This document shows positions 7,421 to 25,248 of a stretch of DNA of 33,138 bases, piece by piece. Each line of letters opens with the position of its first letter. The first letter of the stretch is position 1. A program made the translations under genes and the position numbers. The notes below the pieces were generated by a model. It saw nothing but the letters and a program-made list of their open reading frames with translations. It was not told the DNA's origin and did no database searches. The DNA comes from Fimbriimonadaceae bacterium (GTDB lineage: Bacteria > Armatimonadota > Fimbriimonadia > Fimbriimonadales > Fimbriimonadaceae): positions 1 to 33,138 of the forward strand of contig DATLWQ010000304.1 in the NCBI GenBank assembly GCA_035576225.1. Reading direction: 5' to 3'.

Positions 7421-7423
7421 GCC

Positions 7424-10696: not shown

Positions 10697-11951
10697 CATC
10701 GCTCTGCTCCTGATCGCCCCGTCGCTTGCGGCGGCGCAGACGTCCTACGACGCGCTTCTTCAGAGGGCGCTGGAAAGCCATCCAAAGGTCGTCGCCGCAA
10801 GGGCGATCGTCCAGTCCGCGCGAGCAGGGAAGTCAGGCCTCCTTGCGCCGTTCCAGCCGATGCTTAGCCTCAACGGCTACGCGGCGGGCGGTGACGGCTC
10901 GATGATCTTTGCGAGCACCGTCGACCCGGTCAACTACGCGATGCTCCAGCACGACGGCGTCGCCGTCGGAAACCTCATGCTCATGTGGAAGATCTGGACG
11001 GGTGGGCGCGACTCCACTGCGCGCGGCATCGGCGATGCAAAGATCGAGGCTGCGGAGCAGATGCTGGAGAGCGTCCGACAAGGAGTCGCCCTCGATCTGC
11101 GCACCGCCTACGCCAACTACTTCTATGCGCAAGGAGCGCTGGGAACCGCGCAGGAGGAAGCCACCTCGGCCGACGAGACCGAGCGCGTCGCCAAAGAGAT
11201 GGAAGACGCCGGCAAGGCGCCCAAGGCCTTCACGCTGCGCGCCTCCGCTGCGGCGCGCAAGTCCGAACAAGGCGTGGCCGTCGCCGAGAGCGCTCTGGCA
11301 AAGGCGCAGGCCGCGCTTGAAGAGGCCGCGGGCGGCCCCATCATGGATCTGGGAGGACTGCAGGAGAACGCCTTCGTCCCGCCCAAGACATTAAAGGAGG
11401 CGCTCGAGCAGGGAAGCGATAGGCCGGAGATCGGCTTCCTCGCCGCGATGGCCCGCTCCGAGGGCCTCCAGGCGACGGCGGTGCGTCGCTCGCTGCTCCC
11501 TGAGGTCTCGCTCATGGCGATGGGCGGGCCGATGGCCGGCTCCGCGCGACAGACCGACACGACCGCCAAGTTCGGGGTCGTCTTCAGCGTGCCCGTCACC
11601 GACGGCGGAATGAGGAGCGCAAAGATTCACCAGGCCGACGCGCAAAAGGACGCGTTCCTCGCGCAAGTCGACACCGTGCGTCTCAAAGTGACGCGCGAGA
11701 TCGAGTCGGCGTGGTCCGAGTGGGTGGCGTCCGCAAAGATCACGGACAGCGCGACCGCCGCGCTCGACTCCGCCGAAGAGTCGTTCAAGGTCGAACGCAT
11801 CCGCTTCGAGAGCGGCAAGTCGATCCTCGCCGAACTGCTCGATGCGCAGACGGCGCTCACCCGCGCAAGGCTCGACGTCCTCGACGCCGCCCGCTACCGC
11901 GACACCGCGCTCGCGCGCCTGGAGAATGCTGTGGGAGCCAAAGTGGACTGA
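10683..11951 (+). CDS. TolC-family outer-membrane efflux factor
   Basis: 422 aa with a signal peptide (MKTHSIALLLIAPSLAAAQ). The body is a two-fold repeated Ala-rich helical pattern typical of OEP/TolC proteins. The start overlaps the RND stop by 14 nt and follows GAGGAA. Confidence 0.85.
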   Translation: MKTHSIALLLIAPSLAAAQTSYDALLQRALESHPKVVAARAIVQSARAGKSGLLAPFQPMLSLNGYAAGGDGSMIFASTVDPVNYAMLQHDGVAVGNLMLMWKIWTGGRDSTARGIGDAKIEAAEQMLESVRQGVALDLRTAYANYFYAQGALGTAQEEATSADETERVAKEMEDAGKAPKAFTLRASAAARKSEQGVAVAESALAKAQAALEEAAGGPIMDLGGLQENAFVPPKTLKEALEQGSDRPEIGFLAAMARSEGLQATAVRRSLLPEVSLMAMGGPMAGSARQTDTTAKFGVVFSVPVTDGGMRSAKIHQADAQKDAFLAQVDTVRLKVTREIESAWSEWVASAKITDSATAALDSAEESFKVERIRFESGKSILAELLDAQTALTRARLDVLDAARYRDTALARLENAVGAKVD

Positions 11952-11975: not shown

Positions 11976-13595
11976 ATGGCATGGCTCCTCCTACTCTTGG
12001 CGACGACAGGACAGGTCCAACAGCGGCCGCAACTCGCGTCGCAGGGGCTGAGCGGCTACATCAGCATGTCTGTGCCCGCGCCGAATGAAGGCTACGGCTA
12101 CGGCGTGAGCCTCTACGCTACGGCCTGGCCGCTCGTCAGCCGCCCGATCCGCGATTTCCAGATCGGCCTCGCGTCCATCTGGATCATCCCCGACAACAGG
12201 GACGTCAATGAGCCGCTGTTGCCGCACGGCACCGTCGCGCGCGACAACTGGCCGGAGCGCGGCCCCAGTTACCGAACGGTCTTCGAGACCATCGAAGGCG
12301 GACTAGGATTTTGGGCGAGCACGCGCTTCGGTTCGACCACCGCCAAGTTCCGTATGAACGGGACGCCGAACGGCTACAACCACGAAATCTCCTCGCCAGG
12401 CTGGGGGTTTGGCAGGACGCAGGCGCTCAAGCCGGACCAGATGGGCATCGCGCAACTCAGCCCGTGGCTGCTCGTCCCGCCCGACGGCCTCACGTTCGAA
12501 AAGGACACGCTCGGCGAGTTGTTCGGCTATGCGTGGATGGCGCTCCCTCTCACCCTGCCCAAGCAGACGACGGCAGGACTGCCGGTTCCAACCGGCAACG
12601 AGTGCTGGACCATGTTCGTCAACGCGAAGAACTTCCGCGGCCCGGTCGCCTGCTACACTCCGGTCACGTGGTCGCGCATCTCGCGCATCCATCCACCGGC
12701 GGTCGGTCGCGGCCTCGACGCGCGACCCGGAGTGGTGGCCGGCGGCGCGATCGAGATCAACACCGTTCCGCGGTTCGTCGCAAAGGCCAAAGACGGGACC
12801 GTCTACACGCGCATCCCGCAGTTGCAGTTCCCGGTCGATGAAGACGGACAGACCGTGCTCATCCACAACTTGACTCACTACGGTAAAGGTGCACTGTGGA
12901 ACCAGGTCGAAGCGTGGATCGCTGGTGGCGCCGCGCCGTCCGGTCAGTTCGACATGAGCGCCGCACGGACGCCGCCTGTCAAGGCCCAACCGCTCACGGT
13001 GCACCAGGGACCCGACCAAGCATTGATCAAAGGGTGTGAGAACTGGCTCAGCACCTCGACGCTCGACGCGACGACCTTTGGCCTTTCGTGGAAGCCAGCA
13101 GCGATCCAGCCGTGGGAACACGGCCTGGGGCGCGGCACGTTCCCCGAGTTCTTCAAGCGAGTCAAGGACGAGTGGTTGGCTATCAAGCCAGAGGACGTCC
13201 CGAAGGAGACCGGCCTCGCGGACGAGAAGTTTCCGCCAGCCGCCACGGATCAGTCTTACGTCTCGCCAGATACAAAGGACGACGTCTGGCACAAACCGGG
13301 CCCGGCGGCGGGCCCCTTCACCGCGCATCTCTCCGACGGCAGCGTCGTCACCTACTACTGGTACCGCTTCATCGACCAGCCCTCGCTGCAAGACGCCGAC
13401 CTGAGCGACGCAGAAAAGGCGAGGCTGCAGTCGGTCGTGGAGAAGATCCACCGGCAATGGACGAAAGAGAGGCAGTACCTTCCATCGCCAGGGAAGGGCA
13501 CGCTCGCATCGCTCGATCCATCGTTACTGGTGATGCCGCCGAAGGGCATGGAGGTCGGTTACGTGCCCATCGTCACGCGCCAGTCTCCACAGTAG
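11976..13595 (+). CDS. hypothetical secreted protein, no recognisable domain
   Basis: 539-aa ORF starting 25 nt after the TolC-like stop on the same strand, with a short hydrophobic N-terminus (MAWLLLLLATTG). Trp/Pro/Gly-rich, with no motif I can name. It is followed by the only clear terminator hairpin of the operon. Confidence 0.7.
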   Translation: MAWLLLLLATTGQVQQRPQLASQGLSGYISMSVPAPNEGYGYGVSLYATAWPLVSRPIRDFQIGLASIWIIPDNRDVNEPLLPHGTVARDNWPERGPSYRTVFETIEGGLGFWASTRFGSTTAKFRMNGTPNGYNHEISSPGWGFGRTQALKPDQMGIAQLSPWLLVPPDGLTFEKDTLGELFGYAWMALPLTLPKQTTAGLPVPTGNECWTMFVNAKNFRGPVACYTPVTWSRISRIHPPAVGRGLDARPGVVAGGAIEINTVPRFVAKAKDGTVYTRIPQLQFPVDEDGQTVLIHNLTHYGKGALWNQVEAWIAGGAAPSGQFDMSAARTPPVKAQPLTVHQGPDQALIKGCENWLSTSTLDATTFGLSWKPAAIQPWEHGLGRGTFPEFFKRVKDEWLAIKPEDVPKETGLADEKFPPAATDQSYVSPDTKDDVWHKPGPAAGPFTAHLSDGSVVTYYWYRFIDQPSLQDADLSDAEKARLQSVVEKIHRQWTKERQYLPSPGKGTLASLDPSLLVMPPKGMEVGYVPIVTRQSPQ

Positions 13596-13687: not shown

Positions 13688-16600
13688 TCAAGGCGCGGGT
13701 TTCTTCGGAGACATGAGAAAGTCGACCAATGACTTGTAGACCTTGTCTGGTTGATGGAAGTCCGGCATCTGCGTCCCCGGGTCGATCGCCTGCGGGTTCT
13801 TCAGGAACCGGAACACCCAGTCCTCTTTCAAACGCGAGGTGACCTCCGCCAGGTCGGGGCCGATCTTCTCCGTGTCCTGACCGGCGATGGACTGCTTGCC
13901 GCCCACCGGGTGACAACTCTCGCACTGGAGTTTCTTAAAGTACGTCGCGCCCTGCATCGCCAGCGGATAGACCTGCTGGTCAGCAGGGACATAGTCGTAG
14001 GGCGCGGTCTGGTTCGACATCTGCATGATGAACTCGACCAGCGTCGTCGTCTCCTCCACAGTCAGATGGAAGTTGGGCATCCGGGCGGGCTCCCACCACC
14101 TGATGCGGTGCGGCTTCATCAGGAAACTGAACAGCCACTTCGGTTTGACCTTCTCGCCTTCGCGAGTGAGGTCGGGCCCGACAGTGTGACCCACGCCGTT
14201 GAGCATGTGGCACGCCTGGCAGTTCTTCCTCAGCACCAAGAGCCGTCCCTTCGTCAGCACGGACTGGCTCGCAAAGAGCCCCGGCGTGTACTCGTTCGGA
14301 AGATCCTCGGGCTTGAGCGAGATCAGATACACCGCGAGCGCGTGCGTCTCATCCTTCGTCAGTCCGAACTTCGGCATCGCCGCCTTGATCGTCGCGGTCT
14401 CGAACTGCTTCGGGTCGTCGATCTTCGCCTGGATCCAGTCGAACAGCGTGCGCCCGACGTTCTTCGCGTTGCCATATTCCAGTTCGTCGACCGTCTTGGC
14501 ACCGACCTCCGTCAAGTCGGGAGCGGCGATGCGCTGGATCTGGCCGATGTCGTGGCATCCGGCGCACCCGCGCTTCATGATCAGTTCCTTGCCCTTGTCG
14601 ACCAGCGCCTGGTCAAAGGTCGGGCTCTCGTCCAACTTCGCTCTCGGCCGCGTCTCGATCTGGATCAGATAGTTGGTGATCAGTGCGATCTGGTCGGCGT
14701 CGAGGCCGAAGACCGGCATTTTGCTGTTCGGCAGGTACGCCTTCGGGTTCTCGATCCACGAGTAGAGCCAACTCGGCGAAGCCTTCGACGCGACGTGCGT
14801 CAGTTCCGGCCCGAACGGCGAGCCTTCGCCCTGGATCACGTGGCACCCCGTACACCCGATGGAGACGACAAGTTTGTCCGCCTTGTCCATTTGCGCCGGG
14901 GTCAAAGGCGTGTAAGTGAACTGGTGTGCAGGCTTCCAGTCGTGCAGGGTGAGCAGGTACGCCGCGATCGCCTTCGCTTCGTCCTCTTTGAATCCGAAGT
15001 TCGGCATTCGCGCTTCGACAGAGTGCGACTGCGGGTTTTCCAGCCACTTGATCAGCCAGTCATGGTCGACCTTCGCTCCGACGTGGTCGAGCGCGGGTCC
15101 GCTCTTGAACACGATGTCGCGTCCCTCGACCTTGTGGCAGCCGAGGCACCCAGAGTTCTCGAAGAGCGTCTTTCCACGGTCGAACACGTTCGTGCCCGTC
15201 ATCTGCTCGACGTCGCCGTGGCACTTCACGCACGTCGACTGCACGAGGTCGCCCTTCATCAGCGGCGTGCCCTTGCCGACCTTGCCGCCGTGCGCCTCGT
15301 TGAGGTCCAGAGCCTGGCCCCATCCGCCGTGGCACGTCGTGCAAGCGAACCGGTCAGGCGAGTGCGTCCCGATGATCGTGCCCGGGTGCGTCCGGAACGG
15401 CTGCGGCGCGTCCTTGAACATCGGGTCTTCGATCCCCATGTGGCACGTGGTGCACCGCTCAACGGTCTTGAGCCGCGGAAGCACGATCTGCTCGATCTCG
15501 GGCCTTGCAGACTCGCTCTTCTTCATTCTCGCCTGGAGTTGCGTCAGTTTCTGCTCCTGGCTGTCGTGAAACTTGTCCAGGTCGTCCTTCGACTTCTTGA
15601 GCGCGTCGACGTCAGTGCCGTCTCCAATCCTTGCCTCGGCGAGTTTGTCCACGTCCTCGGCCCAAAGGAGGTGCTGTGCATGGTCCTTCAGGTCGCCCTT
15701 GGTCCCCTCCAGAGCGAGGTTCGCCTCCGCCAATGCGAGTTTCGCCTTGGCCGCGTCGAAACTTGTCTTCGCGATCTTGATCTTGAGCGTTTCATTGGCC
15801 GGCAGCCCGAGCGTCTGCCTCTCGTAGAGGTGCTGCGCCTCGGCGTAGTTGCGCTTCGCGTCGTCGAGGCTTCGTTGCGCCGCCGTCGTATCGACCTCCA
15901 GTTGACTCGATTCGACGAGTTCGTCCTGGTCGATCTTCGGCGCTTCTGCCTGCGGCTGGGACGACTGGTCGGCCTGCCCCTTCTGGGCCGCCTGGCCCTT
16001 CGAACTGTCCGGGAACGCCTTGTCCAGTTCTCCCTCGAGGCTTGAGTTGTCATCGCCGGAAGAAGCCTGGCCCTTGCCCTTGTCGGCCCGGCCCTTGTCG
16101 CTCTGGCCCGATCCGCCGGACTCGCCGCCGCCCATCCCTGCAAGTTCTTTCTCCAAGTCGGACATGTCGCCAGAACTGCCGTCCTTCGAGGAGTCCCCTT
16201 GCGTGGCTTTGCCCTTCCCACTGTCGGTCTGCGCGCCGCCCTGGTCGGAACCGCCCATGCCGGCGAGTTCCTTTTCCAGGTCCGACATTTCGCCGGCGCT
16301 CGGGGCCGCTCCCTGGTCCGAAGTCGTGGTCTCCTCGCCCTGCGCCGACTGGATGTCCAGTTCGTCCAGGTCCGCCTCCAGTTGCTCCAAAGAAGACGCG
16401 TCTTCGTCGCGCTTGGCCAGCGCCTTGTCATAGAGGTCGCGCGACTTCTTATAGTCCGCCTCGTACGAAGGCGACTTCAGCCACGCCGTCAACTGCTGGA
16501 TCTGCTGGCCCAGCAGTTTCTGCTCTTCCTTCCTGTATTTGCTCTGGTAGTCGATCCACGAAGGGTGCGTGTCCTTCCAGATCGACAGGCCCATGACGAC

Positions 16601-16702
16601 GAGCATAACGACGCTCAGCACGAGGAATGAAGCGCTCATTTTGAACGCGCTCTTGTCCGGTTTCTTTGCTTTCTTCAGGCCCATGGCCACACCCAACTCC
16701 AC
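13688..16702 (-). CDS. membrane-anchored octahaem c-type cytochrome (3 clustered haems plus 5 tandem class-I cytochrome c domains) with a long coiled-coil/acidic N-terminal region
   Basis: Eight CXXCH motifs: CTTCH, CTTCH, CVKCH, CLGCH, CTGCH, CAGCH, CQACH, CESCH. All lie in residues 417-1004 (nt 13688-15454). The last five sit in a repeated pattern GC-x-GCH...GP-L...W...P...MP-F. An N-terminal TM helix (FLVLSVVMLVVMGLSIW) is followed by about 370 aa rich in E/D/K/Q/G/S. GTG 16702 follows GAGGA by 6 nt. An alternative ATG lies at 16684. Confidence 0.9.
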   Translation of the reverse strand: MELGVAMGLKKAKKPDKSAFKMSASFLVLSVVMLVVMGLSIWKDTHPSWIDYQSKYRKEEQKLLGQQIQQLTAWLKSPSYEADYKKSRDLYDKALAKRDEDASSLEQLEADLDELDIQSAQGEETTTSDQGAAPSAGEMSDLEKELAGMGGSDQGGAQTDSGKGKATQGDSSKDGSSGDMSDLEKELAGMGGGESGGSGQSDKGRADKGKGQASSGDDNSSLEGELDKAFPDSSKGQAAQKGQADQSSQPQAEAPKIDQDELVESSQLEVDTTAAQRSLDDAKRNYAEAQHLYERQTLGLPANETLKIKIAKTSFDAAKAKLALAEANLALEGTKGDLKDHAQHLLWAEDVDKLAEARIGDGTDVDALKKSKDDLDKFHDSQEQKLTQLQARMKKSESARPEIEQIVLPRLKTVERCTTCHMGIEDPMFKDAPQPFRTHPGTIIGTHSPDRFACTTCHGGWGQALDLNEAHGGKVGKGTPLMKGDLVQSTCVKCHGDVEQMTGTNVFDRGKTLFENSGCLGCHKVEGRDIVFKSGPALDHVGAKVDHDWLIKWLENPQSHSVEARMPNFGFKEDEAKAIAAYLLTLHDWKPAHQFTYTPLTPAQMDKADKLVVSIGCTGCHVIQGEGSPFGPELTHVASKASPSWLYSWIENPKAYLPNSKMPVFGLDADQIALITNYLIQIETRPRAKLDESPTFDQALVDKGKELIMKRGCAGCHDIGQIQRIAAPDLTEVGAKTVDELEYGNAKNVGRTLFDWIQAKIDDPKQFETATIKAAMPKFGLTKDETHALAVYLISLKPEDLPNEYTPGLFASQSVLTKGRLLVLRKNCQACHMLNGVGHTVGPDLTREGEKVKPKWLFSFLMKPHRIRWWEPARMPNFHLTVEETTTLVEFIMQMSNQTAPYDYVPADQQVYPLAMQGATYFKKLQCESCHPVGGKQSIAGQDTEKIGPDLAEVTSRLKEDWVFRFLKNPQAIDPGTQMPDFHQPDKVYKSLVDFLMSPKKPAP
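16046..16291 (-). repeat. intragenic tandem duplication, 2 x 123 nt (41-aa unit beginning [ED]MSDLEKELAGMGG)
   Basis: Residues 138-178 and 179-219 of the octahaem protein both start with MSDLEKELAGMGG followed by Gly/Ser/Asp/Lys-rich low complexity. At the DNA level the conserved cores lie at about 16250-16291 and 16127-16168. Confidence 0.8.
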
Positions 16703-17316
16703 CCTGGTCCTCGGAAGAACTGTCCGATCACGATGAGAACGAGCCCTATGTATACAAACATCCAGTAGAACCTCCGTCGAGCGAGTTCGGCCCTCTTTTC
16801 ATCGTCAAAACGAGGCGAGCCCGCGTACTTCCTCAGGAGAACGAAACTGACGATCCATAGAATGAACGTCGGGAACCCGTAAACGCGGATGGTGTCCGCG
16901 AAACCTGGCGCCATCGAGTGCACGAGTTCCCATATGATGTCGTCGAATACGGGCATCACGATGATTGCGACCAGGAAGCCGGAAGGAATGATCGCCTTCC
17001 TGCCTTTGCAGTAGGGGATGGTGCACAAGGTCGCGACGATCGCGCCCGGCACCATCACTCCGGCGATGAACGGCGGCGCGTAGTGCAGCAGTTCCTGCAG
17101 CCCCAGGAAGTACCACGGAGCCTTCGCCGGGTTCGGAGTCTTGCCGGGGTTGGCGATCTGCTCCAGCGGCGCGTTGAAGAAGTACGCGATCAGGAACAGC
17201 GCCATGCACAGCAGCCCGAACGCGATGAACTCGCGAGCGATCAGGTTCGGATACGTCGAGACGGTCTCTTCTTCCTCGGTGTCCTTGACCGTCGACCTGC
17301 CGGGGATGAAGGCCAT
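16675..17316 (-). CDS. cytochrome b C-terminal half (b6f subunit-IV-like) with extra C-terminal helices
   Basis: 213 aa. The Qo-site block reads NPAKAPWYFLGLQELL, aligning to the PEWYF block of cytochrome b/subunit IV. AAGGAG lies 9 nt upstream of ATG 17316. Confidence 0.85.
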   Translation of the reverse strand: MAFIPGRSTVKDTEEEETVSTYPNLIAREFIAFGLLCMALFLIAYFFNAPLEQIANPGKTPNPAKAPWYFLGLQELLHYAPPFIAGVMVPGAIVATLCTIPYCKGRKAIIPSGFLVAIIVMPVFDDIIWELVHSMAPGFADTIRVYGFPTFILWIVSFVLLRKYAGSPRFDDEKRAELARRRFYWMFVYIGLVLIVIGQFFRGPGWSWVWPWA

Positions 17317-17371
17317 CAGGCCGTACTCCTTGTCGTCGTGCCGATCTTCGTTGGTGTTGTCGGTGTTCAGT

Positions 17372-18124
17372 TTATAGACCTCCCGAAAAACCGTCTTTGC
17401 GCACCCTCCACAAGTGGTACACGATGAGCGCGACCATCACGAGCGGCACCGCGACGCAGTGCAGAACGTAGAACCGCAGCAGCGCGGGCTGGTCGACCGT
17501 CGCACCGCCGAGCAGCACGAACCGAATGTCCGCGCCGGCGAACGGCACCGCGCCCGCCATGTTCGTGCCGACCGTCACCGCCCAGAACGCAAGTTGGTCC
17601 CAAGGCAGCAGATAGCCGGTGAAACTCAGGAAGAACGTAAGTACCAGCAGGATGACGCCCACCACCCAGTTGAACTCCCGCGGGTGCTTGTACGCCTTGG
17701 AGACGAACACGCGGATCATGTGCAGGAACACGACGACAACCATCGCGTGGGCCCCCCACCGGTGGACGTTGCGCACGATCTTTCCGAGAGAGATCGCCGT
17801 CTGCAGGTCCACCATGTCCGCGTGGGCGCGCTCGACCGATGGCACGTAGTAGAACATCAGCAGCACGCCGGTCACCGTCAGGATCAGGAACAGCGCCGCA
17901 GAAAGCCCGCCAAGGCAGTACGTGCAGTTGAACTTGATCGCCTGAGCCTTGATCTTCGACGGGTGCAGGTGGAACCAGAAACTCGTGATCGCGATCTCCG
18001 ATCGTTCGCGGTCTGTCCGGGGGTACGGCTTGGTAAAGATCGACCGCCAGACCAGCGACTGCTTCACGGTCTCGACGAACGTCTTCTTTGTGCCTGTCTT
18101 TTCTTCGTTTGGGATCTGACTCAT
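17372..18124 (-). CDS. cytochrome b6-like N-terminal half of a split cytochrome b
   Basis: 250 aa. Paired His haem-b ligand blocks are present ([19 protein letters not shown] and [23 protein letters not shown]). There is a b6-type TYCLGG block. The ATG overlaps the Rieske stop as ATGA (18121-18124). Confidence 0.92.
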
Positions 18125-18600
18125 GCCTTGAATCCTTTCTTGCGGTCGAGTTCTCCCGATTTGTCCACGATCAGCACGCCAAGCGCGTTCTCAGTGATCT
18201 CGAAGGAGTCGAGCGGGCGCGGCGCCGGGCCTGCGTAGTTCGTGCCGTCGTGGTGGTACTTGCTGCCGTGGCACGGGCAGAAAAAGCCGTTCGTCGCCGG
18301 GTCGGAGCGGACAGTACAGCCCAGGTGGGTGCAGACCGCCGAGATCGCGAGCAGTTTGTCGCCGTCGCGGACGATGAAGACCTTCTGGTCCTTCAGGAAC
18401 GTCGCCGTCCCATCCGGGAAGTCGTCGAGTTTGCCGACGCGGAACTTGTTTGGCTTGCCGTATTCGACGTTCGGCACGAGGAACCGCAGGGAGCCGATCA
18501 TGATCAGGAAAAGCGTGGTGCAGAAGGTCCACAGACCGGCCAGGAACAGCCTCCTGGTCGTCTTTTCGGACTTCGTCTCGGGCCCGCGCTTCACAGTCAC
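18121..18600 (-). CDS. Rieske [2Fe-2S] subunit with Tat-type signal anchor
   Basis: ORF 18121..18912 trimmed to GTG 18600 ([22 protein letters not shown]...), with an alternative GTG at 18594. GGAGGG lies just upstream, and the GTG overlaps the preceding stop as GTGA. Cluster motifs CTHLGC and CPCHGS are present, with a twin-Arg TRRLFL. Confidence 0.88.
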
Positions 18601-20450
18601 ATGCCCTCCTGATAGCGGCCCATCCACATCGCGTCGACGGGGCATCGTTCGACGCAGAGGCCACACCTCGTGCACAGTTCTTCGTCTTTCAGCATTGCAT
18701 ACCATCCGGGGCCGTCGTATGAGCGGTCGGACGCCATGTCTTCGAGCGTCATTGAGTGCCGCTTTTGTGCGAGGTCCTTCAACTTGTCGTCCACGTCGAC
18801 GTTGTCGACCGGCACGATCCGCAGACAACCGTACGGGCAGACGTCGACGCATCCGCCGCACAGGACGCACTTGTCCCAGTCGACCATCGGGCTCAGGTTG
18901 CACTTGAGGCAACGCTGTGCCTCACGTACCGCCTCCATCCGCGAGAAGCCGACCTCGACCTCCGTGATGCCGACCCGCCGATCCATCGGGAGCGTCTTGA
19001 TCTCCTGCCTTGGTATGTAATCGTAGTCCTTGGCCATGTGGTGCGTCTGCAGGCGAATGACCTGCGGCTCCCTGTGCCTCGGGTCTGGCGCTTCGGCGCC
19101 CGTCAAGTACCGATGGATCTCGAAGGCCGCCTTGCGTCCGTCTGCGACCGCCTCGATCGCGGTCCTTGCTCCAAACGCCGCATCGCCGCCCGCGAACACG
19201 CCGGGGATCGAGGTCGCCATCGTGTCGGGATCGGTCTTGAGCAGCCCGCGCGAGGTGAGCGTGGCCCGGCTTTCGTCGCTCAGGAAGGAGAGGTCCGTCT
19301 CCTGGCCGATCGCCAGCAGGATCGTGTCGCAGTCGAACGTCGACTCCGACCCTTCTTCGAACTTCGGGGAGAACCGGCCCCTATCGTCGAACACCGAAAG
19401 GCAGCGCCTCGTCACGAGCCCCGCGCACTTGCCGTCCCTTGCCTCGACCTCGACCGGCCCGACGGAGTTGTGGAGCACGATGCCCTCGTTCAGCGCTTCG
19501 ACGATCTCCTCTTCATAGGCCGGCATCTCCTCCGGTGACTCCAGGCACATCAAGTGGACCTCCGTCGCGCCAGACCGCTTCGCGATCCTCGCGACGTCGA
19601 CCGCCGGACCGAGCGCGACGCCCGTCGTCGCCTTAGCCGTGTCCTCGGCCGTCAGTTCGAGCGGCCCGCGGATCGCCGTCCTAGCGACGTCCATCGCGAC
19701 GTTTCCGCCGCCGATGACGACGACCCGCTGCCCAATCTCCACCTTATAACCTAGGTTTTGGTTGAGGAGAAAATCGATTCCGTTGATGACGCCGTCGCTC
19801 TCGATGCCTGCGATCGGCAGTCCGCGCCCCTTCTGCGCACCGACCCCCAGGAAAACCGCGTCATAACCGCCGCTGAGCAGATCTTCGAGCGAGATATCGT
19901 CGCCGATGCGACAGTTCGTGCGGAGATCCACGCCGACCGAGAGCAGCGACTCGATCTCCTTGTTCATGATGTCCCGCGGGAGCCTGTACTCGGGGATTCC
20001 GTGCACCAGCATCCCGCCCGGACGGTCGCTCGCTTCGAAGAGCGTCGCCTGAAAGCCGAGCAGCGTCAGGTCGTGAGCGGCAGTCAGGCCCGCCGGGCCC
20101 GCGCCGATGACGGCGACCTTCTTCTTCGTCTTGTTGAGCCCGTCAAAGTCGCCGCCGGACTTGAATCCTGCGCTCGAATGGTCTGCCGCCGCCCGCTTCA
20201 GCCCGCGGATCGAGATCGGGTCGTCGTGCTTGCCGCGCCGACACGCGAACTCGCACGGGTGGCCGCAGATCCTCGCGCAAATGTTGACGAACGGGTTGGG
20301 GAAGCGGGCTATCTCGTACGCTGCATCGAAGTCGTTCCTGGCGATCGCCTCGATGTACCCTTGTGCGTTTGTTTCTACTGGGCACGCGCCACGGCAACTG
20401 ACGAGTGACCTGAGCCACTTCGAGTCCATGGCACGTGCCCTGTATTTCAT
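18597..20450 (-). CDS. GltD-like (glutamate synthase small-subunit family) FAD/NAD(P)-dependent oxidoreductase with a C-terminal 2x[4Fe-4S] ferredoxin domain
   Basis: 617 aa. The N-terminal Cys cluster is CRGACPVETN...CARICGHPCEFACRRG. Two Rossmann GxGxxG motifs are present (VAVIGAGPAGLTAA, VVVIGGGNVAMDVA), plus a GMLVHGIPEYRLP block. Two C-terminal CxxCxxCxxxCP motifs are present (CVLCGGCVDVCP, CTRCGLCVERCP). No signal peptide, so it is predicted cytoplasmic. Confidence 0.88.
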   Translation of the reverse strand: MKYRARAMDSKWLRSLVSCRGACPVETNAQGYIEAIARNDFDAAYEIARFPNPFVNICARICGHPCEFACRRGKHDDPISIRGLKRAAADHSSAGFKSGGDFDGLNKTKKKVAVIGAGPAGLTAAHDLTLLGFQATLFEASDRPGGMLVHGIPEYRLPRDIMNKEIESLLSVGVDLRTNCRIGDDISLEDLLSGGYDAVFLGVGAQKGRGLPIAGIESDGVINGIDFLLNQNLGYKVEIGQRVVVIGGGNVAMDVARTAIRGPLELTAEDTAKATTGVALGPAVDVARIAKRSGATEVHLMCLESPEEMPAYEEEIVEALNEGIVLHNSVGPVEVEARDGKCAGLVTRRCLSVFDDRGRFSPKFEEGSESTFDCDTILLAIGQETDLSFLSDESRATLTSRGLLKTDPDTMATSIPGVFAGGDAAFGARTAIEAVADGRKAAFEIHRYLTGAEAPDPRHREPQVIRLQTHHMAKDYDYIPRQEIKTLPMDRRVGITEVEVGFSRMEAVREAQRCLKCNLSPMVDWDKCVLCGGCVDVCPYGCLRIVPVDNVDVDDKLKDLAQKRHSMTLEDMASDRSYDGPGWYAMLKDEELCTRCGLCVERCPVDAMWMGRYQEGM

Positions 20451-20481
20451 GCGTTCATGTTCCTTTCAATTTCGCGCTCTG

Positions 20482-21849
20482 TTAGAACGCGAATCTGAAG
20501 AAAACCCCCAGACTGTCGTCGCCGTTGACGTCTCTAGTGTATTCGCCTGCGATCGCAAAGTTGGTTCGCAGGAAGTGCGTGTAGTTGAACGTGTACGACT
20601 CGTGCTGCCAGTCGGGGTTGTCGCCCGAGTTGACGCGGTCGTAGCGCGCGGTGACGATGTCGTTGGGTCCAGTAATGAACCCGAGTTGTGCGAAGTAGCC
20701 GCTGACGTCCATCGGAGTCGAGTTGACCACCGCGGTCGGGTTGTCCGCCCTACCAGTGACGGCAGCCGCCTCAAAGATATACGGTTTCTGATTATTGCCC
20801 GCTTTCTTGATCGGCTTGCCGAACTGCCAGGTCAGGTCCGCACCGTAGAAGTGGAACTTGTTCTCGAACTCCGCCAGGGTGTTCGGATCCTGGACGATCG
20901 TCCGACCTGAGTAGCCAAAGAGTCCGAGTTGCGAGTCGTTGTCGAAGTTGAACCCGACGCGGGCCCAGTAGTCGGTGACCCCCGGCGAGGACGTGATTGG
21001 GGCGTTCGGATCGTCTGACTGGCCTTCTGTGCTCCCGTCGGAGATCGCGACCTCCCAGATCATTCCTTTCATGGAGTCGTAGGGGTCGCCCTGGTCTCCA
21101 AGTTGGAGGTCTTGTCCGCCCGCGAAGCCGTTCACCGGCACCAGTTTGTTCTGGGAGTCGCCGGAGGCTCCGTCGTCGCCGCTGGACGGGTTGCCCTTGA
21201 CGAGATCGGAGGTGATGGTCGAGCCGACGGTGCCGAACAGCCGTATGCCGCCGACGATGTGGTCGAGCGCGAACCCGCCCACGTTGACGTCATAGATGCT
21301 GTACGGTGCGTCCGTCAGGCTGAACTCGTTGCTGAGGCCGTTCTCCATCAGGTCGAGCAGACCGACCTGCAGAAAGACGTTCTGGCCGCCGAGGAAACTG
21401 AAGACGGCGTTGGCCTTCTTGACCGCAGCCTCTCCGTCCTCGACCGAGATCTCGCTGAAGAACCCCATGTTCGGGGCCAGCGTCCCTCCGGCCAGCAGTT
21501 CTGCCTCGTTGAAGAAGTCAAACGAGTTGCGGTCGCTTGCGTTCACCCATTCGGGGAACGACATCGAACTCTTCAGTTGGATCGCGAACGGGATGCTCGA
21601 GGGCAGGCTGAAGTTGGGGTCCTCGTCGGCGTAGATCTTCTTCGTCTTCGAGTCGCCCGGCTGTTGATAGCCGCTCATCCTAAAGTTCTTCCCGAACGTC
21701 GTCAACTTCGGAAACCCGATGTGACAGCGCGCGCATGTCGTGTGATACTTTCTTGCGAATTCTGGTATTGCCTGCGCCGTCTCCGCCACTCCGAAGAGAG
21801 CGACTGCGCAGAGTGTGACCAGGTAACCCATTCTATGTGTTGCTTTCAT
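20482..21849 (-). CDS. monohaem cytochrome c fused to a predicted outer-membrane beta-barrel (Cyc2/Cyt572-like cytochrome-porin)
   Basis: 455 aa with a signal peptide (...GVAETAQA/IPEF). A single CARCH sits at residues 39-43 (nt 21721-21735) within FARKYHTTCARCHIGFPKLTTFGKNFRMSGY. The rest is Gly/Asp/Asn/aromatic-rich with alternating pattern, ending in an OMP-type C-terminus GVFFRFAF. Confidence 0.65.
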   Translation of the reverse strand: MKATHRMGYLVTLCAVALFGVAETAQAIPEFARKYHTTCARCHIGFPKLTTFGKNFRMSGYQQPGDSKTKKIYADEDPNFSLPSSIPFAIQLKSSMSFPEWVNASDRNSFDFFNEAELLAGGTLAPNMGFFSEISVEDGEAAVKKANAVFSFLGGQNVFLQVGLLDLMENGLSNEFSLTDAPYSIYDVNVGGFALDHIVGGIRLFGTVGSTITSDLVKGNPSSGDDGASGDSQNKLVPVNGFAGGQDLQLGDQGDPYDSMKGMIWEVAISDGSTEGQSDDPNAPITSSPGVTDYWARVGFNFDNDSQLGLFGYSGRTIVQDPNTLAEFENKFHFYGADLTWQFGKPIKKAGNNQKPYIFEAAAVTGRADNPTAVVNSTPMDVSGYFAQLGFITGPNDIVTARYDRVNSGDNPDWQHESYTFNYTHFLRTNFAIAGEYTRDVNGDDSLGVFFRFAF

Positions 21850-21917
21850 GTACTATCTTCCGTTTCAGTACTTACTTACTGTTTTTGTTTGACTTACAAA
21901 GTGTCCAAGCCCCGTTC

Positions 21918-22529
21918 CTACGTCTTCACCTTCAGCAGGATCGTCGTGTTGCCCGTCGCTCCGACGGTGATGCTCTCATCGGTCGAACCCGTAGGAGTCC
22001 ACACCTTCAGAGTGTACGAGCCGGCCGGCACGTCCGGGATCTTGAAAAGACCGGACTTGTCGGTCACGGCGAAGAACGGGTTGTCCAGGACTGCGATGTA
22101 TCCTTTCATCGCCGCATGGATGTGGCACCTGACTGCAACGACTCCGAACTTGTCAAACGTGACGTCGGAGTACTTGCCTTTGTCAGGCTGGCTGATGTTG
22201 AACTTGAAGAGGCGAGAATTCGCGTAGACGTTGTGGAGAAACGGGTCGGAGTTCAGGAACCGCACTGTCGTGCCTACCATGATCGCGAGCGTGTCAGGGA
22301 CGAACGTCTTGTCCTTCTGGTCCATGAGCACTGGCTTTTCCGGCGCTTTGAACTTGCCGGGCACCGACGCGATGTAGACGACCGCGCCCGTAACTCTCTT
22401 GCCATCGACGGTCGATTGGACTGCACCCTGGACGTTGCCTGCCATGGCAAATGGGGCCAACGTCGCGACCACCGCGAGGGCGGTCAGAGCCCGCTGGGAG
22501 AGTCCTCGGTTGCGTAACATTTCTTTCAT
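21918..22529 (-). CDS. periplasmic cupredoxin-like (type-1 copper) protein flanked by carboxypeptidase-regulatory-like beta-sandwich segments
   Basis: 203 aa with a signal peptide (ALTALAVVATLAPFAMA). The candidate Cu ligand set is His99 (SDPFLHNV) plus Cys135-x2-His138-x2-Met141 (VRCHIHAAMKG, nt 22107-22127). The C-terminal GLFKIPDVPAGSYTLKVW resembles a CarboxypepD_reg-like segment. AAGGAG abuts ATG 22529, so the second ATG (22520) may be the true start. Confidence 0.65.
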   Translation of the reverse strand: MKEMLRNRGLSQRALTALAVVATLAPFAMAGNVQGAVQSTVDGKRVTGAVVYIASVPGKFKAPEKPVLMDQKDKTFVPDTLAIMVGTTVRFLNSDPFLHNVYANSRLFKFNISQPDKGKYSDVTFDKFGVVAVRCHIHAAMKGYIAVLDNPFFAVTDKSGLFKIPDVPAGSYTLKVWTPTGSTDESITVGATGNTTILLKVKT

Positions 22530-22558: not shown

Positions 22559-22574
22559 GTTGAACTTTGTCACA
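22559..22574. promoter_or_regulatory. Crp/Fnr-family-like site GTTGA-ACTTTG-TCACA (TGA-N6-TCA core)
   Basis: The minus strand reads TGTGA-CAAAGT-TCAAC, matching 8 of 10 positions of the CRP half-sites. The site is centred 37 nt upstream of the cupredoxin ATG. It overlaps the tandem 10-bp repeat CGTTCTAGTT/CGCTCTAGTT at 22542-22561. Confidence 0.35.
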
Positions 22575-22590
22575 CGGGCCATCTGACCCG

Positions 22591-22606
22591 TATGACCGTG
22601 GTCATA
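22591..22606. promoter_or_regulatory. perfect 16-bp palindrome TATGACCGTGGTCATA (TGA-N6-TCA core), candidate Crp/Fnr-family operator
   Basis: Perfect dyad in the divergent intergenic region between the respiratory operon and the ccmF-like gene, 32 bp centre-to-centre from the 22559-22574 site. A second dyad overlaps it: ACCGTGG (22595-22601) with CCACGGT (22613-22619). Confidence 0.45.
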
Positions 22607-22752
22607 CCTATGCCACGGTGCCATTTCTAGACTCAAATGCCTGTTCCAACGATACTCCAACGGTCCTAGGATGCACAATGGGTGCAGGCGTCCCGCCGAG
22701 CAGCGCGCACACCGGGTGCGAGCAGGTCGAGCGCAGAGGCGCCAGCCTTGTG

Positions 22753-25248
22753 ATGAGCCAGTTTTCTCAGCCTCTTCCGTTTTGGATATCGTTCGGCTCC
22801 CTCGCCGCAGCCTTGGTGGTCGTCGGAGTCGTTGCCTTCGCGGGCTGTGCGCTCTTGTATGCTTTTGGAAAAGAGACGGCGCTCGCCAAGAAGATCGGCA
22901 ACGTCTGCTTTGCGACCGGCATCGGCACCCTCGTCTTCGCGATGGTCGCGCACCTCTCACTGATCCTGACCAAGCAGTACTCCTTCCAGTACGTGTGGAC
23001 GCACACCAGCAACGAACTGCCGTTCATCTATAGGCTTTCGGCCGCGTGGGCGGGCCAGGAGGGGAGTTTCCTGCTGTGGGCGGCCATGACCGGAATCATA
23101 GGAGCGATCGTCGTACGTTGGACGGGGAAGTACCGCCGCTGGTATCTCGTCAGCCTCGCCGGCGTCCTCGCCTGCCTCATGGGCATCCTCGCCTACGAAT
23201 CGCCTTTCAGACTGATCACGATCACCCCAGAACTGATGGCCGCGCTCCCCGCAGGAGTCACGATGGTCCTCCCTCCTGACGGCCAGGGCCTCAACCCCTC
23301 GCTCGTCAGCCCATGGATGGTCATCCATCCCTGGATCATCTTTGCGGGCTTCGGTTCGCTCGGCGCTCTCTTCGCCTGGTCGGTCTCGGCAGCCGTCTCC
23401 GCAGACTGGGACGGCTGGGCCAAGGCGGTCCGGCCAGTCGTGATCCTTTCGATGAGCCTGATCGGCCTCGGCCTGGTCTTCGGCGGCGTTTGGGCGTACG
23501 AGACCCTCGGGTGGGGAGGGTTCTGGGCGTGGGACCCGGTCGAGAACGTCGCGCTCGTCCCCTGGCTGCTTTCGATCGTCTTCGCGCACGGGCTCTACAT
23601 CCAGAACCACCGCCACAAGTGGACCCGGTTCAACCTCGTCATGGGCGCGCTGCCGTTCCTCTCGTTCGCCTGGGGCACGCTATTAACAAGGAGTGGAGCC
23701 CTCACAGCCGTCAGCGTCCACAGTTTCGCCCGTATGGAGGAGGGCGCGCACGGAATCATGTTCTGGCTCGTGCGGTCAATCGTCCTCATCGTCCTCTTCG
23801 GAGGTGGCTTTGTGGCGGCCCGCAAGATTCGTGCAGCCGAAGAAGGTTCGGATGCACGGGCGGCATCCCCGCTGAGCATCGTCTTGGTCGCCGTCGCGTT
23901 CTTCATAGTGGCCGCAATCGTGTTCGCTGTCCTCACGTCCGCCGGAGAGGGGCGCTCGTTCCAGTGGTCGGTCTATAGCGGCTTTCTGATCTCTCTGGTC
24001 GTCGGTCTCGCGGCGTTCCTCGCAGGCGTCCTAGTCGGCAAAGCCGCCGCACCGGCCGTCGCTTCCGGACGCGAGGAGGTCGCCGAACACCGCACCAAGG
24101 CGATCGCGATCGGGATGGCTCTTGTTGCAGTCCCCGGCGTGCTCGCGGCGATTGGTTCAGCCGTCCCGCTGTTTGCGACCATCGTCTCCAAAAAACCCAG
24201 TGTCGTCGAGGAGGGAACCTACAACCGCTCGCTCGGCGCGTTCCTCGTCCTTATATTAATCGTCGTCGGCATCGCGCCCTTCATGGGCTGGACCGCCACC
24301 AAGCGAGAGCGCATCGCCAGGGTCCTTCTCTCGTCCGGCATCGGCCTGGTGCTCGCCGTCGCCTCCGTCTTCGTACTCAGGAAGTTCGACCTCACGCGTC
24401 CTGACGGCGTGCCGATGAAGGCACAAGAACTTGTCCTCTATGAGGCCATCATCGCAGCCTGGCTCTTCGCCGTCGTCGCCAACGCAGTCCGCCTGTTCGA
24501 GCGGATGAAGGCCAAGACCGGCAACCCCGGCCCCTTTCTCGCGCACGCTGGTGTCGCTCTCGTCCTGTTAGGAATCGTAGTGTCGAGGGCCTTCGGCAGG
24601 CAACAGACCGGCATCGTCGCGGTCGGCGAGCCGGCGACAGTCATTGGCGCACAGTTGAGCGTCCCCTCCGAACCCTCGCAGACCGCAATGCTCAAGCCCG
24701 GAAACAAGGTGCCGTTCAAACTGGAGTGGGCCAAGCGAGACTACACTCTGTCGCCCGTAGTCTACGAACAGCCTACGGCGATGGGAAGCCTCCAGCCCGT
24801 CACGAGGCCCGACATCCGTTCGACTCCGTTCTACGACCTCTACCTCTCGGTCGCGGACATGGTCAAGGACTACGTGGACCCAGTCCGTTTCGGGCTCGGC
24901 GACACCAAGGCCGTCGGCGACTTCATGTTCACGCTCGCATCGCTCCAGCAGCAGACGCCGTCGACCGCCGTCGCGACCTTCAACGTCCGCAACTCCGACG
25001 GCGAGACGCGCACGTTCAGAGTGCAGCGCGGCACCGCGGACGGCACCTCGGACCCTGTCCCGTTCGCGGACTTTGTGGGCATGCGGCTCGACTCGGCTGA
25101 CGTCGCGAGCGGCTCAGTCGTCCTCTCGACCCCCTATGAGCGACCGGTGTTTCCCGTCGAACTCATGTTCCGTCCCATGACGGTATTGGTCTGGATCGGG
25201 GCTTTGGCGACCATGATGGGCATGGTCTTCGTCTATCGGCGCAAATGA
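22753..25248 (+). CDS. ccmF: CcmF/NrfE-family cytochrome c haem lyase, extended (831 aa)
   Basis: ORF 22567..25248 trimmed to ATG 22753 (MSQFSQPLPFWISFG...). The Trp-rich haem-handling motif is WAYETLGWGGFWAWDPVENVALVPWL. CcmF-like blocks are seen throughout (AAWAGQEGSFLLW, LNPSLVSPWMVIHPW, LLTRSGALTAVSVHSFA), with a C-terminal TM matching the CcmF end. Confidence 0.88.
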   Translation: MSQFSQPLPFWISFGSLAAALVVVGVVAFAGCALLYAFGKETALAKKIGNVCFATGIGTLVFAMVAHLSLILTKQYSFQYVWTHTSNELPFIYRLSAAWAGQEGSFLLWAAMTGIIGAIVVRWTGKYRRWYLVSLAGVLACLMGILAYESPFRLITITPELMAALPAGVTMVLPPDGQGLNPSLVSPWMVIHPWIIFAGFGSLGALFAWSVSAAVSADWDGWAKAVRPVVILSMSLIGLGLVFGGVWAYETLGWGGFWAWDPVENVALVPWLLSIVFAHGLYIQNHRHKWTRFNLVMGALPFLSFAWGTLLTRSGALTAVSVHSFARMEEGAHGIMFWLVRSIVLIVLFGGGFVAARKIRAAEEGSDARAASPLSIVLVAVAFFIVAAIVFAVLTSAGEGRSFQWSVYSGFLISLVVGLAAFLAGVLVGKAAAPAVASGREEVAEHRTKAIAIGMALVAVPGVLAAIGSAVPLFATIVSKKPSVVEEGTYNRSLGAFLVLILIVVGIAPFMGWTATKRERIARVLLSSGIGLVLAVASVFVLRKFDLTRPDGVPMKAQELVLYEAIIAAWLFAVVANAVRLFERMKAKTGNPGPFLAHAGVALVLLGIVVSRAFGRQQTGIVAVGEPATVIGAQLSVPSEPSQTAMLKPGNKVPFKLEWAKRDYTLSPVVYEQPTAMGSLQPVTRPDIRSTPFYDLYLSVADMVKDYVDPVRFGLGDTKAVGDFMFTLASLQQQTPSTAVATFNVRNSDGETRTFRVQRGTADGTSDPVPFADFVGMRLDSADVASGSVVLSTPYERPVFPVELMFRPMTVLVWIGALATMMGMVFVYRRK

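Follow-up and report, generated by a model that had tools for sequence, protein, structure and literature searches.

We analysed a stretch of 33,138 bp (G+C 58-68%; hereafter the window) from a Fimbriimonadaceae bacterium of the phylum Armatimonadota (contig DATLWQ010000304.1), which carries seven consecutive open reading frames (ORFs) on the reverse strand, running from position 22529 to position 13688. Their predicted products bring together a Cyc2-type cytochrome-porin, a cupredoxin, a Rieske/cytochrome b complex with an NAD(P)-linked flavoprotein, and an octahaem cytochrome c. In gene order, the cluster reads as follows:

21918-22529, (-) strand: protein 1, predicted cupredoxin with an immunoglobulin (Ig)-like CarboxypepD_reg domain and a signal peptide, 203 aa
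20482-21849, (-) strand: protein 2, predicted Cyc2-type monohaem cytochrome-porin of the outer membrane, 455 aa
18597-20450, (-) strand: protein 3, predicted cytoplasmic NfnB/GltD-like NAD(P)-FAD Fe-S flavoprotein, 617 aa
18121-18600, (-) strand: protein 4, predicted Tat-exported Rieske [2Fe-2S] protein with one transmembrane anchor, 159 aa
17372-18124, (-) strand: protein 5, predicted cytochrome b6-type protein with four helices, 250 aa
16675-17316, (-) strand: protein 6, predicted subunit-IV-type half of cytochrome b with five transmembrane helices, 213 aa
13688-16702, (-) strand: protein 7, predicted membrane-anchored octahaem cytochrome c, 1004 aa

The junctions between these genes, recomputed from the ORF coordinates, measure 68, 31, -4, -4, 55 and -28 nt and are identical to those listed, for seven genes on the same strand, in an earlier note on this DNA, whose assignments of the components also hold for all seven products on Pfam and NCBIfam profiles, motifs, hydropathy and, for proteins 1 and 2, AlphaFold2 (AF2) models. 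The flavoprotein coding sequence overlaps the Rieske gene by 4 nt, the start of the latter being a GTG that overlaps the stop of the upstream gene. A scan for consensus promoters and terminators gave counts at chance level, with no terminator signal above chance inside the cluster, which is compatible with a single transcript and not in itself proof of one.

Cyc2 proteins are defined by a signal peptide, by the motif AXPXFAR[Q/K][T/Y], described as "unique to Cyc2", before a single CXXCH, and, four residues downstream, by PXL (Keffer et al. 2021, PMC8406198); in addition, they are at least 365 aa long and have a 16-strand porin that resembles OprO/OprP (PMC8406198). Protein 2, at 455 aa, reads A-I-P-E-F-A-R-K-Y-HTT-CARCH-IGF-PKL, which matches this defining consensus, and has one CxxCH. 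Across 42 homologs, P29, R33, K34, Y35, C39, C42, H43 and P47 are invariant, and A27, F31, A32 and L49 are conserved in at least 90%. The sole hydrophobic segment spans residues 7-25 and is followed by A-Q-A, the signal peptide being called on a hydropathy scan only, and the protein ends in ...FFRFAF. An AF2 model built from the 42-homolog alignment (predicted local distance difference test score, pLDDT, 82.3; predicted template-modelling score, pTM, 0.81) has 16 long strands and a disordered loop of about 30 aa at residues 221-252, and the Foldseek matches of the model in the PDB are 16-strand porins, with OprO (4rjw) in 11th place at an E value of 7e-9. Since searches of protein 2 against Pfam, NCBIfam and PDB sequences gave no match, its identification rests on the published motif and the predicted fold. 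By sequence and model, protein 2 agrees with Cyc2 in each of the features tested, namely, signal peptide, motif, length and barrel; the Cyc2 likeness proposed in the earlier note is thus borne out by the defining motif and the modelled 16-strand barrel, the fold which that note had named as a check and which is here seen in silico. Protein 2 has few close relatives: among 5.8 billion proteins, about 22 share 33-56% identity with it, one of them named Fimbriimonadaceae, and on these comparisons the protein is assigned to a small, distinct subfamily. Every Cyc2 protein that has been examined in experiments is an Fe(II) oxidase (PMC8406198; PMC13647500), and the substrates predicted for Cyc2 are limited to small dissolved ions such as Fe2+. 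A hot-spring study has reported a cluster-3 Cyc2 in an Armatimonadota metagenome-assembled genome (MAG), with no Rieske protein mentioned (PMC9671151).

Protein 1 matches Pfam Copper-bind at 22.5 bits (cut-off, 21.2), and its C-terminal Ig-like domain matches CarboxypepD_reg at 31.4 bits, slightly below the cut-off of 32.3. The copper ligands, a His and a Cys-x-x-His-x-x-Met, are invariant both in 15 syntenic homologs and in a family alignment of 44 sequences. The AF2 model has a pLDDT of 92.3, and its best Foldseek matches in the PDB are the cupredoxin domain of NirK, amicyanin, pseudoazurin and plastocyanin, at target-normalised template-modelling scores of about 0.7; "plastocyanin" is also the name given by the Joint Genome Institute (JGI) to many homologs of protein 1. 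The hydropathy scan found a single hydrophobic segment, at residues 15-33. Taken together, sequence and model identify protein 1 as a predicted soluble periplasmic type-1 copper protein with a signal peptide.

The Rieske protein (protein 4) has a Pfam Rieske match, the sequence TRRLFL before a single transmembrane helix, and the motifs CTHLGC and CPCHGSKY. Its best PDB match is 9rk4 (109.6 bits; E value, 1e-30; 53% identity over 98 aa), with 9rk3 in third place; these are Kuste4569 and Kustd1480, respectively, the Rieske subunits of two Kuenenia complexes with an NAD(P) oxidoreductase and hexa- or octahaem cytochromes c (PMC12954380). The anammox Rieske proteins have potentials above +300 mV and a Ser/Tyr or Ser/Phe tuning pair (PMC12954380), and the window protein is predicted from its Ser/Tyr pair to be of the high-potential type. 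The cytochrome b6-type half (protein 5) matches Pfam Cytochrome_B at 157 bits and has four transmembrane helices, an N-terminal W-F-H-L-H-P motif and a CLGG (haem cn) motif. Protein 6 matches Pfam Cytochrom_B_C and NCBIfam ExtQ and has five hydrophobic segments on the hydropathy scan, and a five-helix subunit IV has been described for the anammox complexes (PMC12954380). The stretch TPNPAKAPWYFLGLQELL of subunit IV is nearly invariant across phyla, and the Qo motif APWY (...NPAKAPWYFLG... in the window) is present in 13 of 14 cluster homologs and in all 36 anammox-type loci compared.

For the anammox complexes, an AlphaFold3 prediction places an extra haem b at the dimer interface, with His43 of cytochrome b as ligand and Arg247 nearby, as a route to the flavoprotein (PMC12954380). 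His52 of the window cytochrome b and the Arg of its WRVRKDG sequence share alignment columns with His43 and Arg247 of Kuste4571, and the equivalent of His52 is kept in 15 of 16 cluster homologs. The haem-cn Cys (T-Y-C-L-G-G; window positions 17915-17926, cytochrome b residues 67-70) is present in the window, as it is in anammox-type cytochromes b. Among the cluster homologs, the Cys of CxGG occurs in the window only: the five other Armatimonadota orthologs have Gly (Y-G-L-G-G), and those of Acidobacteriota and Bacteroidota have Gly, Trp or Tyr, so that haem cn seems dispensable for the module.

The domains of protein 3 are Fer4_20 (N-terminal 2x[4Fe-4S]), Pyr_redox_2 and two Fer4 (a C-terminal 2x[4Fe-4S] ferredoxin), found with Pfam and NCBIfam, and the hydropathy scan detected neither a transmembrane segment nor a signal peptide. 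Its best relatives of solved structure are NfnABC (9bov/9bp5), NfnA and NfnB, 9bp5 being the template that was used for Kuste4570 (PMC12954380). By these sequence features, protein 3 is a predicted cytoplasmic NfnB/GltD-like NAD(P)-FAD flavoprotein.

Protein 7 has eight CxxCH motifs (residues 417, 454, 491, 519, 617, 713, 828 and 927) and one N-terminal transmembrane helix on the hydropathy scan. Each of the last five motifs is followed 45-63 residues on by an MP motif, the class-I His/Met pattern, and the first three are close-spaced and of multihaem type. Profile searches found five Pfam Cytochrom_C domains and SoxX-like and ExtS-like NCBIfam matches, and in Pfam and NCBIfam the class-I domains resemble the oxidase-associated FixO and CcoP. 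The last cytochrome of every complete locus, between 654 and 1048 aa in length, contains exactly eight CxxCH. A linker of about 350 aa (residues ~50-400; window ~15500-16550) sits between the membrane anchor and the first haem; it is helical, of low complexity, rich in Ala, Asp, Ser, Lys and Gly, and includes a duplicated ...MSDLEKELAGMGG... segment. Tandem Repeats Finder reported only a minor 15-nt repeat in this region, at 16076-16109. The linker is a feature of the Armatimonadota octahaem cytochromes, and the orthologs in other phyla, at 654-723 aa, are without it.

The gene set is found well beyond the window. A scan for the motif AIP[AYE]FARKY in one genome per GTDB species returned at least 599 Cyc2-like stretches, of which the best 80 were kept, and the seven window proteins were compared by tblastn with 84 loci, consisting of these 80 and L001-L004, which came from contigs with homologs of the porin-cytochrome. 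The identical seven-gene order occurs in six Armatimonadota loci (L001-L006, with L001 from Fimbriimonadaceae). The full set, with the Cyc2 and cupredoxin genes swapped, is present in Acidobacteriota (L012, L013, L022, L025 and L050) and, with the same swap, in Bacteroidota (L017 and L047); L014 and L051 are partial, being cut by contig ends. The same set with an extra cytochrome c is carried by L085 (Acidobacteriota, Terriglobia), a JGI metagenome contig present in 20 or more samples. Protein identities across the cluster loci range from 23 to 66%, the porin-cytochrome has exactly one CxxCH in all complete loci, and b6 is fused to subunit IV in several Acidobacteriota. The earlier note had set conservation of the order in relatives as a test by which the idea of a unit could fail; the order is kept, and the same set occurs in Armatimonadota, Acidobacteriota and Bacteroidota. 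The seven-gene set is a conserved unit, not a chance adjacency, and we consider it highly probable that the cluster encodes one envelope-spanning redox module made up of a Cyc2 porin, a copper protein, an octahaem cytochrome c, an APWY-type Rieske/b complex and an NAD(P) flavoprotein. That these products form a complex, share a single electron path and act on iron, and in which direction the electrons flow, we infer.

Parts of the set also occur in other combinations. Cyc2 and cupredoxin genes stand side by side in 30 of the 80 loci, including that of Ca. Nitrospira defluvii, in many cases without Rieske/b genes alongside. A Desulfobacteraceae MAG (L057) and an Acidobacteriota MAG (L070) combine a Cyc2-like protein, a cupredoxin, a Rieske protein, cytochrome b/subunit IV and a multihaem cytochrome c without the GltD-like flavoprotein; the multihaem cytochrome has eight CxxCH in L057 and is cut by the locus end in L070. 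A Chthonomonadaceae MAG (L007, 9229-20049) has no Rieske/b genes and carries, in order, a cupredoxin, a Cyc2-like protein, a second cupredoxin-like protein, a rubrerythrin-like protein, a Fer4_5 membrane polyferredoxin, a COX2-like cupredoxin, a 745-aa GltD-like flavoprotein, a cytochrome c and a multihaem cytochrome c. We considered its Fer4_5 protein as a transmembrane wire in place of Rieske/b and set this idea aside, because the architecture also fits a CcoG-like cupric reductase, that is, presumably a function in copper maturation. In two loci (L088, 7633-10185; L089, 4176-6718), one of them from an Acidobacteria MAG, Cyc2-like proteins of about 390 aa are immediately preceded not by a cupredoxin but by a multihaem cytochrome of about 450 aa with faint MtrC/c7-like matches. 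No terminal oxidases were seen beside the distant Cyc2-like genes of L087-L089.

For comparison with the anammox-type complexes, 80 further loci were fetched with the Kuste4569 Rieske sequence as the query. Their typical gene order is Rieske, flavoprotein, cytochrome b, subunit IV. Window proteins share 35-42% identity (flavoprotein, residues 8-612), 50-54% (cytochrome b) and about 45-50% (subunit IV) with those of the Kuste4569-type loci; the octahaem cytochrome resembles the typical anammox multihaem gene weakly, at 27-35% over short stretches, and reaches 32-33% over about 420 aa only in L132, L141 and L148. The earlier note had drawn a parallel with the anammox combination of Rieske/b, NAD(P) oxidoreductase and multihaem cytochrome c, and this parallel proves to be one of homology: on sequence comparison, the Rieske/b/flavoprotein part is homologous to the anammox Kuste4569-4573 complex and, hence, of an already known kind, with weak similarity in the multihaem component. 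With the Kuenenia stuttgartiensis systems Kuste4569-4573/4 and Kustd1480-1485, the window shares a split b6, a subunit IV with five transmembrane helices, APWY, a Ser/Tyr Rieske protein, an NfnB/GltD-like flavoprotein, a multihaem cytochrome c replacing cytochrome f, the His/Arg pair for the proposed extra haem b, and the CxGG Cys. The two differ in that (i) the flavoprotein gene precedes the Rieske gene in the window and follows it in the anammox loci, (ii) the window cluster lacks a partner like hydroxylamine oxidoreductase (HAO), (iii) its hosts are Armatimonadota, Acidobacteriota and Bacteroidota, which have no anammoxosome, and (iv) the window operon adds the Cyc2-type porin-cytochrome and the cupredoxin. 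A Cyc2-like gene was found in none of these 80 loci.

Cupredoxin matches occur in only four of the anammox-type loci, all of them in a different context. In marine metagenome contigs (L136, 4082-13617; also L138, L140 and L154), a lone Kuste4569-like Rieske protein (68-72% identity) lies beside two copies of a cupredoxin with CarboxypepD_reg, with neither cytochrome b nor flavoprotein at the locus; these marine cupredoxins are 40% identical to that of the window and are interleaved with NapH-like Fer4_5, C_GCAxxG_C_C and Fer4_22 proteins. A cupredoxin homolog from a wastewater 'Candidatus' genome (P0210) was considered as a link to anammox and rejected, as its locus lacks both Rieske/b genes and the FARKY motif. 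A Nitrospinota MAG (L086, 2070-7824) has an EB_dh-like haem protein, a GltD-like flavoprotein (48%), a fused cytochrome b, a Rieske protein and a trihaem cytochrome c, with no Cyc2 and no cupredoxin. In wider surveys, short "subfamily G" cytochromes b co-occur with NAD(P)/Fe-S oxidoreductases (Dibrova et al., PMC5600118), and an "APWY clade" has been recognised as uncharacterised, taxonomically mixed and possessing mid-to-high-potential Rieske proteins, with APWY and the Pro of A. ferrooxidans PPWY both being associated with reverse operation (Kao & Hunte, PMC4122944). Quinol-dependent reduction of NAD(P)+ is unproven even for the anammox enzymes (PMC12954380).

The remainder of the cluster resembles two iron-linked systems. 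As in the iron chain of Acidithiobacillus ferrooxidans, an outer-membrane Cyc2-type monohaem porin would be combined with a periplasmic cupredoxin, c-type cytochromes and a Rieske/b complex that has Pro as the second residue of its Qo motif and is thought, in A. ferrooxidans, to run in reverse; an NAD-binding protein is also encoded with the bc genes in both, although the window flavoprotein is unrelated to SdrA. The parts of A. ferrooxidans lie in two operons, rus (cyc2-cyc1-cox-rus), with an aa3 oxidase, and petI (cycA1-sdrA-petABC), whereas those of the window form one operon with no oxidase. A. ferrooxidans has an unsplit bc1 complex, cytochrome c1 and ubiquinone, in contrast to the split b6 type and octahaem cytochrome of the window, whose cluster is carried by phyla that use menaquinone. 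The window cupredoxin is amicyanin/plastocyanin-like with an extra Ig-like domain, and orthology with rusticyanin is not implied. The combination of Cyc2, cupredoxin and bc complex is the architecture of the A. ferrooxidans iron chain, for which outward operation of Cyc2, rusticyanin and bc1 in Fe(III) respiration has also been proposed (PMC8790237).

In Geobacter sulfurreducens, extHIJKLMNOPQS similarly unites in one cluster an OprP-like porin, c-type cytochromes, the lipoprotein cytochrome c ExtS, and a module of Rieske, b6 and membrane subunit (ExtO/P/Q). Unlike the window protein, the ExtI porin carries no haem; the Geobacter cluster has no cupredoxin and no NAD(P) flavoprotein, and its partners are 10- and 12-haem cytochromes and a rhodanese. 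The NCBIfam scores of the window proteins are 278.2 against a cut-off of 290 for ExtP, 53 against 150 for ExtQ and 88.4 against 100 for ExtS, and the Rieske protein has no ExtO match in NCBIfam. Membership in the Geobacter Ext family (selenite/tellurite reduction operon) was rejected, as all scores lie below the cut-offs; the cytochrome b is related.

Of the directions in which electrons could pass through such a module, we tentatively favour, as a real possibility, the inward uptake of Fe(II) electrons with the complex in reverse or confurcating operation. Dissolved Fe(II) would be oxidised at the Cyc2 haem, and its electron, of high potential, would reach the Rieske centre by way of the copper protein and the octahaem wire. 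At the Qo site, it would be joined with a low-potential electron that, assisted by the membrane potential, arrives from the b haems and is drawn either from NAD(P)H via the flavoprotein or from quinol at the Qi site, and the pair would reduce menaquinone. Such a reverse or confurcating Q-cycle would correspond to the uphill petI branch of A. ferrooxidans and to the backward running that has been suggested for complexes of the APWY type. The flavoprotein would join the b-haem chain to NAD(P)(H), probably via the extra inter-monomer haem b at His52. If the high-potential end were kept oxidised, the system could run forward, the electrons of quinol being split, one for the c/Cu chain and the other for NAD(P)+. 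We favour the inward direction because the tested Cyc2 proteins are all Fe(II) oxidases and are thought to handle only dissolved Fe2+, because the architecture is A. ferrooxidans-like, and because APWY is tied to reverse operation.

Several considerations weigh against inward flow: (i) of all Cyc2 homologs, the cluster-3-like ones are those whose function is least certain; (ii) the carriers belong to phyla best known as heterotrophs; (iii) no carbon-fixation or oxidase genes are found in the window, the operon lacking a terminal oxidase, unlike the rus operon; (iv) the confurcating mode would consume NAD(P)H, to a benefit that is not obvious; (v) the flavoprotein is missing in L057 and L070, which makes the NAD(P) link optional and not essential to the core; and (vi) with a high-potential Rieske protein and menaquinone, reverse flow would be a steep climb, the same pairing having been read in anammox bacteria as forward bifurcation to NAD(P)+ (PMC12954380). 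The earlier note had gone further and proposed a self-contained conduit from Fe(II) to NAD(P). Its components, their homology and their synteny stand, but net reduction of NAD(P)+ by Fe(II) through one complex does not agree with the Q-cycle: the low-potential electron arises only when quinol is oxidised with a high-potential acceptor, so that one complex cannot carry out the net reaction. On this scheme (PMC12954380), electrons from Fe(II) entering via the Rieske protein could only help to reduce quinone, and net transfer from Fe(II) to NAD(P)+ would need a quinol source and an oxidant from outside.

Outward flow is the strongest alternative, and one which we consider rather unlikely. Menaquinol would be oxidised at the Qo site, and one electron would pass outward via the Rieske protein, octahaem cytochrome, cupredoxin and Cyc2 and, at the cell surface, be taken up by a soluble high-potential oxidant (Fe(III) complexes or Mn(III), for example), while the second would complete the Q-cycle or reduce NAD(P)+ by bifurcation, as proposed for anammox; NAD(P)H may feed the Qi side. 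Transfer from quinol to a high-potential chain would be the spontaneous direction, the window Rieske protein retains the Ser/Tyr pair, and the carriers belong mostly to heterotrophic phyla from peat, soil and humic water. Outside very acidic habitats, Fe(III) is insoluble or held in bulky chelates, which counts against this direction, as does the prediction that Cyc2 acts only on small dissolved ions such as Fe2+. The Geobacter ext cluster, which pairs a porin with Rieske/b6 and to whose ExtP cut-off the window cytochrome b comes near, is up-regulated on Fe(III), and the A. ferrooxidans chain has been proposed to run outward during Fe(III) respiration (PMC8790237). The anammox homologs, furthermore, are modelled as forward-bifurcating, a Rieske potential above +300 mV fitting the reduction of NAD(P)+ from menaquinol (PMC12954380). 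Against these parallels stand the link of APWY to reverse operation (PMC4122944) and the record of the Cyc2 family, every member of which tested so far oxidises Fe(II).

It is less probable still, and in our view distinctly unlikely, that the Rieske/b genes encode a general complex III feeding terminal oxidases, with Cyc2 and the cupredoxin sharing its periplasmic pool or regulon without a dedicated wire. The separate occurrence of the two halves speaks for such an arrangement: flavoprotein and Rieske/b are found without Cyc2 in the Nitrospinota locus and in all anammox-type loci, and the Cyc2-cupredoxin pair is found without adjacent Rieske/b in many genomes, Ca. Nitrospira defluvii among them. 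The likeness of the octahaem class-I domains to FixO and CcoP points the same way. However, the tight junctions (-4, -4 and -28 nt) and the occurrence of the complete set in three phyla speak for products that function together in stoichiometric amounts, the set being kept despite the swap of the first two genes, the fusion of b and subunit IV, and identities of only 23-66%; no oxidase gene is co-located in the loci examined in this respect (L001-L004 and L085). Chance or recent assembly of unrelated genes, for which only the general caveat speaks that gene order alone is not proof of function, is effectively refuted and has a negligible probability, since more than 15 independent loci, from various phyla and habitats, keep both set and order.

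The operon is flanked by a divergently oriented gene that may be related to its function:

22567-25248, (+) strand: CcmF-like haem lyase, divergent neighbour of the cluster, with Pfam Cytochrom_C_asm and CcmF_C

A CcmF/CcmE pair also adjoins the cluster in L001 (Fimbriimonadaceae) and is not next to it in L002 or L003. The window CcmF-like gene is a possible but uncertain member of the unit; as an accessory gene, it may encode a dedicated maturation factor for one of the unusual haems. A 539-aa ORF with no Pfam match (11976-13595, forward strand) converges on the end of the operon. The rest of the flanks consists of unrelated housekeeping genes, including those for Cus-type RND efflux, queuosine, the kynurenine pathway, GlpX and a molybdopterin enzyme. 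In the efflux system (5483-11951, forward strand), a Cus-like RND system for heavy metals that may be linked to the supply of copper to the cupredoxin, a membrane-fusion protein bearing two HMBD metal-binding repeats is encoded together with an AcrB/CusA-type pump and an outer-membrane factor. At 58-2084 on the reverse strand lie genes for a kynureninase-like protein and for tryptophan 2,3-dioxygenase; the latter enzyme needs O2, which suggests that the host is at least facultatively aerobic. The nearby Crp-family protein of the window is without the N-terminal Cys cluster of the Fnr type. No regulator is shared across the loci, an Rrf2 gene being found upstream in L003 and L085 and otherwise only in L082, so that regulators give no clue to the direction of flow.

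As a module, Rieske/b with an NAD(P) oxidoreductase is already known outside anammox bacteria (PMC5600118, PMC4122944). What is apparently new is the hard-wiring of Cyc2 and a cupredoxin to an anammox-type NAD(P)-linked Rieske/b complex: no description of these parts as a unit was found in the full-text literature, most subscription journals lying outside the search, and within the literature open to such a search this agrees with the earlier note, to which no such description was known. A more specific proposal, that the Rieske/b complex couples extracellular iron redox to menaquinone and NAD(P)(H) by bifurcation or confurcation at the Qo site without complex I, is speculative, and we regard it as unlikely, if worth pursuing.

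The biological interest of the cluster is threefold. First, Rieske/b complexes bearing an NAD(P) oxidoreductase have been an open problem since the anammox genomes, with both the high-potential acceptor and the direction unsettled, and the window would, if our reading is true, provide the first natural context with an identifiable high-potential partner of such bc complexes. As the locus ties the complex genetically to two small proteins, a cupredoxin and a monohaem porin, each of which can be expressed alone, hypotheses of bifurcation and reverse flow become testable outside slow-growing anammox cultures. Second, the variants of the locus, namely, those without flavoprotein, with fused b and subunit IV, and with or without the haem-cn Cys, amount to a natural experiment on which parts are essential. 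Third, Cyc2 is used as a marker of iron oxidation, and its tie to a quinone/NAD(P) module cautions that Cyc2 matches are not simply chains from Fe(II) to an oxidase and suggests an iron-coupled energy metabolism, in either direction, in supposed heterotrophs. If true, the cluster would represent a previously unrecognised iron-linked energy module that is widespread in Acidobacteriota, Bacteroidota and Armatimonadota, phyla that are abundant in soil and peat.

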